DNA of 64,000 nucleotides from a virus (Duplodnaviria > Caudoviricetes): positions 3,360 to 67,359 of the IMG/VR virus record IMGVR_UViG_2974752881_000001. One strand, written 5' to 3'. Each line of letters opens with the position of its first letter. Position 1 is the stretch's first letter. The position numbers were made by a program, and so were the translations under genes. A model generated the notes under the pieces. The model searched no databases. It saw nothing but the letters and a program-made list of their open reading frames with translations, and was not told the DNA's origin. Shown here one piece after another: positions 4,175 through 63,700 of the stretch.

Positions 4175-4473
4175 CCATCGCCGTCGGCCGACGTCCCGGC
4201 GCAGCACAGGGAGGACAGTTCGCACCGCGGGCCACGCTCGTCGGCTGTGACTTCCCGTTGTGCGACAAGGCCATCCACTTCCCGGTCAACATGCAGTCGT
4301 CGAGCGCGCAGTGCGTCCGCGACACCATCCGGTTCATGCAGCGGTACGACCGGGACCCGAAGATCTCCGGCTGGACTGTCGACACCACCGTCGACCCGGC
4401 GAAGTTCTTCTGCTCCCGGCACGCCGACATGCCGAAGCGGCCGACCGGCACCCTGATCCTCCCAACGAATTGA
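4171..4473 (+). CDS. hypothetical protein (RRPG..GGQFAP N-terminus; Cys/His motifs)
   Basis: ATGA overlap. Confidence 0.75.
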   Translation: MTIAVGRRPGAAQGGQFAPRATLVGCDFPLCDKAIHFPVNMQSSSAQCVRDTIRFMQRYDRDPKISGWTVDTTVDPAKFFCSRHADMPKRPTGTLILPTN

Positions 4474-41693: not shown

Positions 41694-42431
41694 TCAAGTT
41701 GACCTCAACCCTAGCATATCCCGCCGGTTGGCTTCGGCGAGGAGAGGCCACCGCTCGAAGATCTTCGTGCGGCTCTCGCGAGTCTTCCGTATCAGCAGGA
41801 GGGCATGGCGGTCAGCATCACGTGCGTGTCGGCCCCCAGATGCCCACATGCCCCACAGTTTCAGCCGCTCGTCGGTCGCTGTCGTCTTGGCCTCGCTCGG
41901 CTGCTGCTTGGTCACCGTGACGTTCTTGGACTCCCAGATCAGGAACTCCAGGATCGCGGTGATGCGCACCGGAGAGAGAGCGTCGCGAGCCTTCGACTGG
42001 GTGCGCAGGGTGAAGTCCTCGATCACCACCGCGGTGTTCAGTCGCTTCGAGTGGAGGGAGATGAGGTGCTCGCACATGAACGCCCCGGCCCACTCTCCCT
42101 CCTCGGACGCGCTCAGGTCGTACTGCGCGGCGGCCGACGACAGCGCGCCGGACCCCGCTCCGCAGTCGATCTCGCCGTGCCACCAGCGGGTGACGACCTC
42201 GTGCGCACGGACGTTTTTGTCGAACAGACGTTCGATGTCGAGGTTCATGACCGACCAACCGGTCGTCCCGCCGGGGTCGAACGACACGATGTTCACGCCC
42301 CGGTCGAGGGAGTCCTGGATCTCGGGGTCGGTCCGGTCGCGAAGCCGTTCCTCCAGCGGGTCCGGGTAGTCCGGGCTCTTGAACTGCCGCCGCCGGTCGA
42401 GCCAGTAATCCGGCGTGTCGAGGGGCTTCAC
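41694..42431 (-). CDS. RuvC-like Holliday junction resolvase
   Basis: VSFDPGGTTGW, VVIEDF, HARDADRH; start at GTG 42431. Confidence 0.85.
   Translation of the reverse strand: MKPLDTPDYWLDRRRQFKSPDYPDPLEERLRDRTDPEIQDSLDRGVNIVSFDPGGTTGWSVMNLDIERLFDKNVRAHEVVTRWWHGEIDCGAGSGALSSAAAQYDLSASEEGEWAGAFMCEHLISLHSKRLNTAVVIEDFTLRTQSKARDALSPVRITAILEFLIWESKNVTVTKQQPSEAKTTATDERLKLWGMWASGGRHARDADRHALLLIRKTRESRTKIFERWPLLAEANRRDMLGLRST
41699..41716 (-). promoter_or_regulatory. extended -10 promoter (TGC-TAGGGT) overlapping operator TTGACCTCAA, upstream of the HTH gene
   Basis: minus strand ATATGCTAGGGTTGAGGTCAAC; same arrangement as at 48899. Confidence 0.6.
42220..42235. promoter_or_regulatory. perfect actinobacterial SOS box TCGAAC-AGAC-GTTCGA (intragenic)
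   Basis: exact TCGAAC-N4-GTTCGA match. Confidence 0.55.
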
Positions 42432-46363: not shown

Positions 46364-46392
46364 AATGTAAGACTTGACGTCATCTTTGTCAA
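46364..46392 (-). promoter_or_regulatory. SigA-like leftward promoter for the dnaE operon with operator in the spacer
   Basis: TTGACA-17 nt (AAGATGACGTCAAGTCT)-TACATT. Confidence 0.85.
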
Positions 46393-53959: not shown

Positions 53960-54426
53960 TGGATCTCCCCGTTGTGCATGACCTCGAACAGACGTTCGAG
54001 CTTGGTGATGTAGGGCCCGCGGTGCTCCACGCCGGAGAAGGTGACTCCGGCCCAGATCCCATTCAGGCGGCTGATCGACTGCGCGGTTTCGAGCGCGTGG
54101 CGAGCGCAGAGAGCGGCCACCGGACAGTGTTGCACGCATATCCGACGGGCCATCTCGTCTTCCTGCCGGAGTTCGATGCGCTCCTCGGGGCTGGCGGCCC
54201 GGCGGGCTTCGAGGTTGGGGACGAACGAGTCCCCGAGGCCGCCGCACGCCGCGTCGGCCATCCAGTTCTCATGTTCTCTCGGCAGGTCGGGAACGTCGAA
54301 CATGGAGGCGGCCCGCGGTGGTCCCGCGTTGGGCTTCGGGCCGACCTCTCCGAACGTGGTCACTCGTGCCGCGGTGATGACGTTGGTGCCCTGGAAGTAC
54401 ACCGCGGTGCGATGAGACCGGATCAC
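53788..54426 (-). CDS. whiB: WhiB-family Fe-S transcription regulator 2
   Basis: NWMADAAC...RRICVQHCPVAALC...NGIWAG; start at GTGA overlap 54426 (or ATG 54303); tail overlaps helicase by about 170 nt. Confidence 0.82.
   Translation of the reverse strand: MIRSHRTAVYFQGTNVITAARVTTFGEVGPKPNAGPPRAASMFDVPDLPREHENWMADAACGGLGDSFVPNLEARRAASPEERIELRQEDEMARRICVQHCPVAALCARHALETAQSISRLNGIWAGVTFSGVEHRGPYITKLERLFEVMHNGEIQWEPSSSKPTTQPSPSESLPSETDSSGPSLPMTTLPSPPSRSGGPLVRTDTIDSVSA
53984..53999. promoter_or_regulatory. perfect SOS box TCGAAC-AGAC-GTTCGA about 25 nt upstream of the helicase start
   Basis: exact match; identical to the 42220 copy. Confidence 0.6.
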
Positions 54427-55270: not shown

Positions 55271-55299
55271 AGTGTAAGAGTTGACGTCAACTCTGTCAA
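55271..55299 (-). promoter_or_regulatory. SigA-like leftward promoter; spacer is the 18-bp perfect palindrome AGAGTTGACGTCAACTCT (55277-55294)
   Basis: TTGACA-17 nt-TACACT. Confidence 0.88.
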
Positions 55300-55981: not shown

Positions 55982-56989
55982 TTATCCGATCTTCTTGATG
56001 CGGCAGACGGCGACGGAGCGGAAACCCCCGCCGACCTGGAGGAAGTGGAGAATGCGGAGATCCTCGCCGTGCTCTTCGGGGTCGAAGTCCGAGGGCGTGA
56101 TGTGCGGCGGGTGCTTCCCGCCGTCGCCGTCGACGATTGCTCGGTCGAGCGCGCCGGACAGCGAGTTCACCCAGACGACCTCGACCCGGTTGTTCGACTT
56201 CCGGTTGGCGCCGAGCTTGGTGAGGATCTCGGCGGAGGTGAGCGGAGAGGCGACGGACGACCAGTTGCGATTCGGGTTCGCCTGTTGGCCCCGCACCGCG
56301 GCGTAGGTGTCTTGCTGGCTCCAGAGGGCGTGCTCGCGGTCCCTAGGCTTCTGCTTCTCCGCGGCGTCCTTGTGCCCCAGGGCCTCGGCCGCGATGTCGA
56401 ACTCGTCGACCTCGGGCACCATGCCGACGTGTTCCATGACCGTCTGCTGCCTCAGCTCCTTGACCTCTTCCGCGGCGGCTTCGAGGTACGGGGAATGGGC
56501 GGCACTATGGGCGGCACTATGGGCGGCACTCTCGTCGTCGCTGTCCGTATGGGCGGCATCAGTGGGCGGCACATCCGTATGGGCGGCACTATGGGCGGCA
56601 CTGGTGGGCGGCACTGGCGCCTCGTCGGCGTCCACCGGCTCGACCCCGAGCTGGTCGTCCTCGGGCTGTGGGTCGCCCGGCTGGATGACGTGGAAGTCGT
56701 TCTCGATCTGCTCGCGCACGTCGCCGCTCTCGGTGTCCAGCACCGTCACCGCGCCGTTGGGGTCGGTGTAGGTGACCTGGTCCTCGGCGACGTCCGGGTC
56801 GATGGCGTAGAAGGCCTTCAGCTCCTCCACCCCGATCTCGCCGAGGTCGCGGCGCAGCGTGACGAATGCGAACTTCTTGTTGACCTTCGGGTGCCCCTTG
56901 GCCGGGGCCCAACTGTACTTCTGAGCGTGCTCGGTGATCTGGTTGGCCAGATCGAGCGCGTCCTGCTGTTCTTCGGTCAGATCGGGCAT
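55982..56989 (-). CDS. 335-aa acidic protein with SAAH repeats
   Basis: first leftward gene; SD GGAG; internal repeat linker. Confidence 0.8.
   Translation of the reverse strand: MPDLTEEQQDALDLANQITEHAQKYSWAPAKGHPKVNKKFAFVTLRRDLGEIGVEELKAFYAIDPDVAEDQVTYTDPNGAVTVLDTESGDVREQIENDFHVIQPGDPQPEDDQLGVEPVDADEAPVPPTSAAHSAAHTDVPPTDAAHTDSDDESAAHSAAHSAAHSPYLEAAAEEVKELRQQTVMEHVGMVPEVDEFDIAAEALGHKDAAEKQKPRDREHALWSQQDTYAAVRGQQANPNRNWSSVASPLTSAEILTKLGANRKSNNRVEVVWVNSLSGALDRAIVDGDGGKHPPHITPSDFDPEEHGEDLRILHFLQVGGGFRSVAVCRIKKIG
56495..56615. repeat. ATGGGCGGCACT-type tandem repeat (8 GGGCGGCA cores)
   Basis: 12-bp units encoding SAAH/PPT. Confidence 0.85.
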
Positions 56990-57123
56990 CAGATCTCCAT
57001 GTTGTTATCGGGTACTACCTGCATATATGACTATTTCAGCGAATCGGCGAAATCGGCTGTACCGGGGTACCGGGGCCGGGGCGTGCGCGGCGCGGGTCGC
57101 GGGGCCGGTCGTCGGGTGCGCTG

Positions 57124-57191
57124 TCGAATGCATGTTCGATCGAATCCCTGTTCGATGACTCGAACGTGTGTTCGATCGAACCGATGTTCGA
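57124..57191. promoter_or_regulatory. array of four LexA/SOS boxes in two abutting pairs
   Basis: TCGAATGCATGTTCGA|TCGAATCCCTGTTCGA-TGAC-TCGAACGTGTGTTCGA|TCGAACCGATGTTCGA. Confidence 0.8.
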
Positions 57192-57314
57192 TCCGGTCTC
57201 GGTGTCCCCTAGTCCGTCCGCTGGACGTTCCCGCTAGCCGCGGGACTTCGGTGGCCCGACCGTCGGCGCGCTACCCCTGTCGCCGATCTCCGCTGTTCTG
57301 TTCTCAATACGACC

Positions 57315-57343
57315 AATGTACCGGTTGGCGTCAATCTGCGCAA
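57315..57343 (-). promoter_or_regulatory. leftward promoter with operator in the spacer
   Basis: TTGCGC-17 nt (AGATTGACGCCAACCGG)-TACATT. Confidence 0.7.
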
Positions 57344-57462
57344 CCCCTACCCCGGATCGTCCCGGGTGCGTCCTGCTGTCGTCGTCATGCTGATGACCCT
57401 ACGGCATGTCAGCGTCGACGTGCAACCCCTACATGCGGGGAAGGCTGGACCGGTTGCACGGG

Positions 57463-57492
57463 TTGACGCCAAGTCTCACATGTGCGTACTGT
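57463..57492 (+). promoter_or_regulatory. rightward promoter whose -35 is the operator
   Basis: TTGACG-18 nt-TACTGT; preceded by inverted repeat CGTGCAACC/GGTTGCACG. Confidence 0.75.
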
Positions 57493-57538
57493 GAGGGCAC
57501 GGCCGGAACACACCGGCCCCGAACTGGAGGAACACACC

Positions 57539-57970
57539 ATGAGTTACCGCTCCGTCTACGCGCCGAAGGATGCCGACATGCGGGCCGAATCGGTCGCCTA
57601 TCTCCGCGAAGTCTTCCCGATCACCGACGGCACGGCGACCGCGTACACCGTCGTCACTCACGTGACCGCTTCCGGCATGGGTCGGTCGATCCTGGTACTC
57701 GCACCGGGCACCGGCACCGACGGCCGCGAAGTGATCAACGTGTCTCGGCACGTGGCCCGCGTACTCGGCTGGAAGCTGGACGATCGGCACGGCGGTGTGT
57801 ACGTCCAGGGTTGCGGAATGGACATGGCCTTTCACACCGTCTACTCACTGGCCCGGGCACTATACGGCCACATGTCCGCCGAAGAGATCACCAAAGTGGC
57901 CGCGAAAGTCAATCGTTACACCGCATCGGCCGACGCCGGTTACCTGATCACAAACCGGGGCCTCCAGTGA
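57539..57970 (+). CDS. conserved phage hypothetical protein
   Basis: SD GGAGG; SGMGRSI...VQGCGMDMAFHTVYSL motif. Confidence 0.85.
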   Translation: MSYRSVYAPKDADMRAESVAYLREVFPITDGTATAYTVVTHVTASGMGRSILVLAPGTGTDGREVINVSRHVARVLGWKLDDRHGGVYVQGCGMDMAFHTVYSLARALYGHMSAEEITKVAAKVNRYTASADAGYLITNRGLQ

Positions 57971-63279: not shown

Positions 63280-63700
63280 CGTGCCTGGAGGCATCGTGGT
63301 CGGCGGGTGCGGGGAGGGGTCTCCAGGGTAGGGGTCTCTCAGCGGCCAGGGAATGAGAGAAAAATCTATCTATCTATGGCCCTAGGGTGTGCATAGGAAA
63401 AATTTTTGAAACGTTTCAATGTGTGCTTACATGTGTGCCTGGAGGCATATAGATAGATAAGGGTAGGGGTCCTATATAGGGGTATTTATATGTATATGCA
63501 TATATGTATATTATATCTATAAATATATCTGAGATAATTGTTAGTAATTAATTCTTTTGAAACGTTTCAATTGACGCCAATAGATACATGCACATGCATT
63601 GATGCATATAGATAAATCATGATTGATTCATTCATTTATCAATGCCGGGGTACCCCCATGGGGGGGGTAGGTGGGGGTAGGGGTAGGGGTCTCATGTCAT
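63280..63700. other. non-coding AT-rich region with several repeat families (candidate origin or packaging-control region)
   Basis: TTGAAACGTTTCAA x2, TGCCTGGAGGCA x2, GGGTAGGGGT repeats, TTGACGCCAA at 63571, G-tract cluster 63660-63689. Confidence 0.75.

Follow-up and report, generated by a model that had tools for sequence, protein, structure and literature searches.

A conserved array of host-type LexA boxes in the divergent control region of cluster CR Gordonia phages

The phage and its divergent gap

The window, meaning the whole stretch of DNA that was analyzed (64,000 nucleotides), comprises bases 3360 to 67359 of a complete virus record of 67,359 bp. The phage belongs to cluster CR of the Gordonia phages, subfamily Emilbogenvirinae. 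Its nearest relative is Ennea (93%), and its closest relatives are Ennea, Patio, Lollipop1437, and RedRaider (genus Skysandvirus). Rightward genes 1 to 58 encode the small terminase and functions in structure and lysis. The leftward arm encodes a primase/polymerase, two WhiB proteins, an HTH protein, a RuvC-like resolvase, a DnaE-like polymerase III alpha, a thioredoxin, a RecA-like recombinase, a Cas4-type exonuclease, and a helicase. Beyond the leftward arm lies a rightward arm of small genes without assigned function.

Does this phage carry the functions of a temperate virus? A preliminary description of this DNA had stated that it encodes no integrase and no repressor, and our searches agree. 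Six-frame searches of the phage genome revealed no tyrosine recombinase, serine recombinase, or ParB, and with a cutoff as loose as E ≤ 1 they detected neither a LexA family member nor a LexA DNA-binding domain. Among the 98 annotated genes of Ennea, there is no integrase, immunity repressor, or partition gene. Phage GTE8 is described in the literature as obligately lytic.

The region under study is a noncoding divergent gap of 549 bp (56990 to 57538), in keeping with the earlier estimate of about 550 bp. It is bounded by the start of a leftward gene at 56989 and by the ATG of a rightward gene at 57539. The gap contains an array of sites that we compared with the actinobacterial SOS box, the 16-bp palindrome TCGAAC-N4-GTTCGA: two of the sites match it perfectly, and two have one mismatch. 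The layout had been described beforehand as two perfect and two one-mismatch sites in abutting pairs separated by TGAC, which proved exact in every detail. The features of the region are as follows (bit scores are from the host-derived matrix described below).

55982-56989, minus strand: first gene downstream of the array, encoding a CR-phage-specific 335-amino-acid protein (phrog_12059, a PHROG of unknown function)
57124-57191: array of four 16-bp TCGAAY-N4-GTTCGA sites, 68 bp, two abutting pairs with TGAC (57156-57159) between them
57124-57139: LexA box 1, TCGAATGCATGTTCGA (TCGAAT-GCAT-GTTCGA), one mismatch, most distant from the predicted leftward promoters, 19.8 bits
57140-57155: LexA box 2, TCGAATCCCTGTTCGA (TCGAAT-CCCT-GTTCGA), one mismatch, abuts box 1, 14.5 bits
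57160-57175: LexA box 3, TCGAACGTGTGTTCGA (TCGAAC-GTGT-GTTCGA), perfect, 24.6 bits, top site of the window
57176-57191: LexA box 4, TCGAACCGATGTTCGA (TCGAAC-CGAT-GTTCGA), perfect, abuts box 3, 20.4 bits
57229-57245, minus strand: leader hairpin, stem TCCCGC/GCGGGA, 5-nt loop (5 to 6 nt across lineages), about 40 nt before the array
57315-57343, minus strand: P_L1, predicted leftward promoter, -35 TTGCGC (57343-57338), -10 TACATT (57320-57315)
57396-57425, minus strand: P_L2, second candidate leftward promoter, -35 TTGCAC (57425-57420), 18-nt spacer, -10 TAGGGT (57401-57396)
57463-57492, plus strand: P_R, predicted rightward promoter, -35 TTGACG, 18-nt spacer, -10 TACTGT, without a LexA box

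The 335-amino-acid protein has no Pfam match; single-sequence AlphaFold gave no usable fold for it (pLDDT 39), and the ESM Atlas contained no look-alike. The product of the second leftward gene (155 amino acids) is called HTH in some records, and inspection of its sequence by eye did not reveal the look of an HTH protein.

A coding explanation of the array was considered and rejected. Gene product 86 of Ennea is annotated across the array, but it is unannotated in Lollipop1437, Patio, and RedRaider. This gene (L001:5111-5353, approximately window positions 57155 to 57397, plus strand) encodes a hypothetical protein starting inside the array, and the call is probably spurious. Open frames are common around the array because the high GC content keeps many frames open.

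A consensus scanner found no promoters or terminators in positions 56800 to 57700. We inferred the promoters from conserved TANNNT elements, and they are hence predictions. The -10 column of P_L1 reads TACATT or TACAGT in all 13 phages of the alignment, which span three genera, and P_L2 is kept in 10 of the 13 (those of Skysandvirus and Gruunavirus). P_R is the sole conserved rightward -10-like element of the gap. All of the conserved leftward TANNNT elements lie upstream of the array, and the alignment of relatives contains none between the array and the gene for the 335-amino-acid protein. Thus, if these predictions hold, the array occupies positions of about +117 to +184 in a leader of about 320 nt that starts near position 57308, and box 4 is the first box met by transcription running leftward. 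The array would then lie past the start of the predicted promoter and not over it. The preliminary description had placed a leftward promoter at 57343 and the array about 120 to 190 nt downstream; the former coincides with the conserved TTGCGC-17-TACATT on the minus strand, and the latter is close to the 117 to 184 nt measured from the predicted start.

The 17-nt spacer of P_L1 holds a phage motif, TTGACGCCAA (57334-57325), and the P_L1 architecture is common to three more promoters of the genome, at 3914, 46392, and 55299. The recurrent motif TTGACGYCAA occupies the spacer (17 nt) of several near-consensus promoters, including TTGACA-17-TACACT at 55299 and TTGACA-17-TACATT at 46392. The P_L1 and P_R regions (57325-57345 and 57452-57472) form a 21-nt inverted repeat, GGTTGCRC-N3-TTGACGCCAA, with the two copies 106 nt apart; TTGACGYCAA serves as the spacer in one promoter of the repeat and as the -35 element in the other.

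Two further elements flank the array. The stem of the leader hairpin is kept by paired changes (CACCGC/GCGGTG in Gruunavirus, TCGCGC/GCGCGA in Foxborovirus, and TCTCGC/GCGAGA in Patio) and is followed by an invariant GAACG. Between the array and the 335-amino-acid gene are a GC-rich stretch, direct repeats of GTACCGGG and AATCGGC, and an AT-rich stretch. The repeats (57040-57076) comprise two to four copies of GTACCGGG(G), which reads GTACTCG in Foxborovirus, and two copies of AATCGGC, and their position is kept in the three genera. A phage protein may bind them, or they may form an origin-like element.

The boxes in the host and in related phages

TCGAAC-N4-GTTCGA is the LexA site of Mycobacterium tuberculosis as defined by experiment (PMC3381160). 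The window contains six distinct TCGAAY-N4-GTTCGA sites, compared to 0.01 expected from dinucleotide-preserving shuffles. Four of the six form the array, and the remaining two are the perfect boxes at 42220 and 53984. What does the corresponding operator look like in the host genus? A 16S probe specific for the genus Gordonia, Gor-0596, matched Gordonia records only, among them the chromosome of Gordonia terrae B62. In G. terrae, two one-mismatch boxes lie upstream of lexA, whose divergent neighbor is a LysM/YneA-like gene, and one box, TCGAACAGGTGTTCGT, lies about 190 nt upstream of recA. Both arrangements are widespread. A recA upstream box was found in 29 of 30 Gordonia species, and lexA boxes were found in 30 of 31 species (loci L107-L136 and L074). 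The latter consist of three boxes in the divergent region between lexA and the LysM gene: a proximal box, TCGAACANNNGTTTGA, and a distal pair, TCGATC-N4-GTTCGA plus A(A/T)GAAC-N4-GTTCGA. The two members of the pair are offset by 15 bp in 26 species (an overlap of one base) and by 16 bp in 4 species (abutting). This three-box structure of Gordonia lexA, with its pair offset by 15 to 16 bp, is a new detail on the host side.

The 5.3-Mb genome of G. terrae contains only 5 perfect boxes; when up to one mismatch is allowed, the count is 53, compared to 9 for a reversed control. Most of the open reading frames beside the five perfect boxes yielded no family assignment, so lexA and recA were taken as the host reference. 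A matrix was built from 89 lexA/recA sites (consensus, TCGAACATATGTTCGA). With this matrix, the boxes of the array scored 14.5 to 24.6 bits compared to a host median of 23.4 bits, and the best scores in 20 shuffled windows averaged 10.0 bits with a maximum of 15.7 bits. Box 2, the weakest of the array, taken alone scores inside the shuffle range; its register is kept in the relatives. One chromosomal 16-mer of G. terrae (G001:C1:432928-432943, L082) is identical to phage box 1 (TCGAACATGCATTCGA on the other strand).

An abutting pair of the quality found in the phage array occurred in none of 401 genomes of the host's order. A looser core pair pattern occurred in 3 of 41 Gordonia genomes, where one match was the lexA operator itself. 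On the basis of the motif match to the lexA and recA operators of Gordonia, the array consists of host-type SOS boxes, and boxes placed side by side are native to the host's own lexA operator. The identification of the sites as LexA boxes in the preliminary description therefore stands at the level of the motif, which is that of the conserved Gordonia operators; binding by LexA is what this match would predict.

Conservation in relatives had been proposed as a check, and the array is present in 13 genomes (12 of them relatives) from three genera, Skysandvirus, Gruunavirus, and Foxborovirus. Two to four boxes occupy the same spot of the divergent gap, and every relative's array has at least one pair abutting at exactly 16 bp. 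The number of boxes varies naturally among isolated phages (two in Patio, three in Emianna and GTE8, and four in others). A BLAST search with a 76-bp block containing the array matched 57 records, all of them Gordonia (CR) phages of 64 to 69 kb, and it matched no phage outside Gordonia. Foxborovirus genomes have almost no boxes outside the array, suggesting that the fixed location is what is conserved.

Our alignment of the 13 gaps revealed pairwise identities of 91% for the half-sites, 59% for the N4 spacers, and 73 to 78% for the flanks. The half-sites of the promoter-proximal pair (boxes 3 and 4) are 95% identical across the 13 phages, and box 4 is conserved in all of them. A ranking of half-site over flank over spacer is the pattern expected from selection on a site for a dimeric protein of the form 6-N4-6, and from this alignment we conclude that the boxes of the array are under purifying selection in all the relatives. 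Because the boxes lack compensatory changes, we read the array as a protein site and not as an RNA stem. We also considered the array as two 12-bp palindromes, GTTCGATCGAAC, centered on the junctions. This reading was rejected: it does not accommodate the isolated boxes (those at 42220 and 53984, the one preceding the small terminase gene, and the single Foxborovirus box) or the conserved outer half-sites, all of which fit 6-N4-6 alone.

The 67-kb phage genome contains four perfect boxes and six with one mismatch, 10 in total. The single boxes of interest are as follows.

53984-53999: perfect LexA box, TCGAACAGACGTTCGA, inside the 3' end of a WhiB gene, 25 nt before the helicase ATG, 23.9 bits
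42220-42235: perfect LexA box, a 16-mer identical to the box at 53984, inside the gene for the RuvC-like resolvase
Genome positions 29-44, outside the window (G000, L091): one-mismatch LexA box, TCGAAAGTCTGTTCGA, 76 nt before the small terminase ATG

The boxes at 53984 and 42220 are each kept with a variable spacer in Skysandvirus and Gruunavirus, and the box at 53984 is absent in Foxborovirus. The TCGAAAGTCTGTTCGA box lies directly upstream of a -10-like hexamer, TAGACT; its genome position is the same in Ennea and Lollipop1437, and Turuncu and Flapper have it as TCGAAAACCCGTTCGA. The RuvC-like, helicase, and small terminase boxes are common to Skysandvirus and Gruunavirus only.

Possible modes of action of the array

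How might the phage use these boxes? The best reading, to which we give about an even chance of being correct, is that of a LexA roadblock that makes leftward early expression dependent on the SOS response; from the sequence we infer the binding of LexA, the block, and its timing. The 68-bp block would serve as an operator array for host LexA within the transcribed leader at the 5' end of the leftward early operon, with four LexA dimers sitting side by side in the geometry of the host lexA operator. LexA on the boxes would stop RNA polymerase arriving from the two conserved predicted leftward promoters. The genes for the 335- and 155-amino-acid proteins and, by read-through, part of the replication/recombination arm would be fully expressed only once LexA had been depleted. 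Depletion would come from RecA-stimulated self-cleavage of LexA in an infected cell undergoing an SOS response, the trigger being either the infection or external DNA damage. Having no box, the rightward early promoter would fire regardless. The single boxes at the helicase, RuvC-like, and small terminase genes may extend this control in some lineages, and replicated genomes would titrate LexA as a side effect. Inside the ruvC gene of M. tuberculosis, a second LexA peak has been observed (PMC3381160).

The position of the array downstream of conserved leftward promoters makes the geometry of a roadblock plausible. However, LexA sites normally overlap the promoter, and a location 117 to 184 nt past the start is atypical. 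In phage GIL01, the LexA sites are located past the start of P1 (PMC4551915), and tandem SOS boxes at colicin genes provide very tight, late-released repression (PMC2994835). The arm also contains strong internal promoters (for example, TTGACA-17-TACACT at 55299) whose transcripts would start beyond the array; by itself, the array therefore cannot silence the replication arm as a whole. Of the roadblock proposed in the preliminary description, the geometry, with the array past the predicted promoters, is plausible, but not the idea that the entire arm is kept silent.

The phages form plaques on undamaged hosts and healthy lawns, which means that repression by the array would have to be leaky or relieved by infection itself. 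In Rhodococcus, a related host, phage infection induces SOS genes within 5 min. With such an induction, the gate could act as a timer in ordinary infections and hold where SOS is not triggered. The preliminary description had also suggested a dormant or carrier state. This was not borne out: we found no partition genes, the CR-specific 335-amino-acid protein was not found in 92 Gordonia species genomes (one genome per species), and GTE8 is described as obligately lytic.

A broader reading is more tentative, and we consider it possible but rather doubtful. In a family of lytic phages without a repressor, a DNA-damage gate of four LexA dimers would defer infection, the amplified arrays would then strip the host of LexA, and the similar four-box arrays in two other, unrelated lineages of metagenomic phages would make it a recurrent viral device. 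Undamaged or quiescent cells would hold the leftward early genes down, and an SOS response from infection or from the environment would release them.

Could the boxes instead act in trans, as a sponge for LexA? With 7 to 10 strong sites per copy and hundreds of copies, phage genomes would outnumber the approximately 50 sites of the host; LexA would be soaked up, and host SOS genes (recA, ruv, and the LysM-type division inhibitor beside lexA) would be turned on to the benefit of the phage. Counting sites with up to one mismatch, the phage has 10 in 67 kb and the host has 53 in 5.3 Mb, an approximately 15-fold higher density in the phage, and the phage boxes equal or beat the host lexA and recA operators, which all have a mismatch. 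The boxes inside genes, where an ordinary operator role is not obvious, and the tight pairs, of a quality missing from all 401 genomes of the order, would also fit a sponge. From this density and quality, titration of LexA by replicated genomes is likely as an effect. As the main function of the array, we regard it as unlikely. A sponge needs no fixed place, register, or pairing, whereas the boxes common to all three genera are only the in-register pairs of the leftward leader, and Foxborovirus has almost no others. A role in cis is favored by the single fixed location of the only boxes that are universally conserved. In addition, the phage has RecA-like, RuvC-like, and DnaE-like proteins of its own and so has less need for the host versions.

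Two other explanations appear improbable to us. The first is that a phage-encoded protein with a LexA-like specificity, a mimic or a competitor, regulates the divergent region. GIL01 reportedly encodes a LexA-like activator of this kind (gp6), and the present phage has several DNA-binding proteins of unassigned target, namely, two WhiB proteins and HTH proteins. The six-frame searches with E ≤ 1, however, returned no LexA family member or LexA DNA-binding domain. A match to the host operator at 12 of 12 positions, which extends to the preferred A at position 7 and T at position 10, would be hard to attribute to coincidence, and the recurrent motif of the phage itself is a different one, TTGACGYCAA.

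The second explanation, to which we likewise assign little chance, is that the array belongs to a replication origin or another DNA-level control region, where LexA or another protein would control firing rather than transcription. The array is flanked by the GC-rich stretch, the GTACCGGG and AATCGGC repeats, and the AT-rich stretch, and similar arrays adjoin iteron-like repeats in two unrelated phage contigs (L098 and L100). However, no initiator gene was identified beside the array, GC skew gave no signal, and the AT-rich, repeat-rich island near 63282 to 63640 is another candidate origin.

Finally, each box could fold into a hairpin (stem of 6 bp, loop of 4 nt), and a correct promoter map would mean that the array is transcribed, but leader RNA hairpins acting in processing, stability, or attenuation, with only an incidental likeness to LexA sites, are very improbable, as it is the box sequence and not the pairing that is conserved (the hairpin 40 nt upstream does have compensatory changes), half-site variants such as TCGAAA break the closing pair, the leader folds no better than shuffles (z = -1.7), and isolated boxes elsewhere in the phage and in the host share the sequence.

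Known systems and similar arrays elsewhere

Among mobile elements, temperate phages, plasmids, and colicins are known to exploit host LexA. One of the closest parallels to the proposed LexA roadblock is the switch of the betatectiviruses GIL01 and Bam35, in which host LexA acts at dinBox1 and dinBox1b of promoter P1 together with the phage protein gp7 (PMC4551915). Like GIL01, the CR phage has no repressor of its own class, more than one adjacent host LexA site lies past the start (in the CR phage, the predicted start) of an early replication promoter, and SOS would release the early genes. GIL01, however, is temperate and persists as a linear plasmid prophage; it has a single good box with a half-site and depends on both gp7 and the LexA homologue gp6. 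The CR phage is a lytic siphovirus in which we found no maintenance genes and no LexA homologue, and it has four full boxes placed 117 to 184 nt into a long predicted leader. A switch of the GIL01 or CTXphi type goes with a stable prophage or episome, and the absence of recombinases and ParB, along with the lytic description, speaks against such a state here.

Virulent phages that read their host provide a second comparison. Lytic deferment has been described for phi29 with Spo0A and for phiCbK-like phages with CtrA (PMC9437464). As in those phages, we found clustered and conserved sites for a host global regulator at the early control region of a virulent phage, apparently for reading the state of the host. 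The regulators and signals differ: Spo0A and sporulation for phi29, CtrA and the cell cycle for phiCbK, and, as judged here from sequence, LexA and DNA damage for the CR phage.

The tandem SOS boxes of colicin genes (PMC2994835) and the Gordonia lexA pair resemble the array in that two LexA dimers would occupy adjacent or overlapping boxes. Unlike these pairs, the phage array doubles the pair to four near-consensus boxes and lies in the predicted leader rather than over a promoter. The LexA-controlled antirepressors of phage 186 (Tum), Gifsy, and SPC32H and the CTXphi promoter PrstA (cited in PMC9437464) likewise make host LexA the DNA-damage sensor of a mobile element. Those elements are temperate, with a repressor of their own and one LexA site per gene, whereas the CR phage has no lysogeny module.

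A scan of actinobacterial tectiviruses for LexA sites was negative (PMC6950372). In the open literature, we found no description of SOS/LexA boxes in Gordonia phages, mycobacteriophages, or other lytic actinobacteriophages. What appears to be new here is the probable co-option of host LexA by a virulent family, through a four-box array in the predicted leader and not over the promoter. A conserved LexA array in virulent phages suggests that their early genes are tied to the SOS state of the host. If this is true, lytic phages too would read host DNA damage, beside phi29 with Spo0A and phiCbK with CtrA. The idea is directly testable in G. terrae, a harmless host, with isolated phages that differ in box number. 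It bears on foam control with phages of the GTE5, GRU1, and GTE8 type and on synergy between phages and DNA-damaging agents, and the array itself would provide a ready-made and, by prediction, very strong LexA operator for genetics in the Mycobacteriales.

Similar arrays were observed in other viral contigs. A metagenomic phage of 49% GC (L098:1990-2175 and L096:3265-3450) has four LexA boxes arranged as two plus two, with the pairs 2 nt apart. They lie in a divergent gap directly after about four tandem 24-bp repeats (GATCAGAACTTAGTTCAGCTAACG). This gap precedes an operon for an HNH endonuclease, the small terminase, and the large terminase; the closest matches to the terminase, at 58% identity, are those of mycobacteriophages. 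The four-box array of L098 lies upstream of the nearest likely promoter and not downstream, so the downstream geometry does not generalize. A 91-kb viral contig of 36% GC has two arrays of two to three abutting LexA-type boxes (L100:191-249 and 4186-4233; L101:571-602), each located after a GC-rich hairpin and before repeats of the CTAACT/AGTTAG type. One of these arrays lies about 45 nt downstream of a perfect TTGACA-17-TATAAT promoter.
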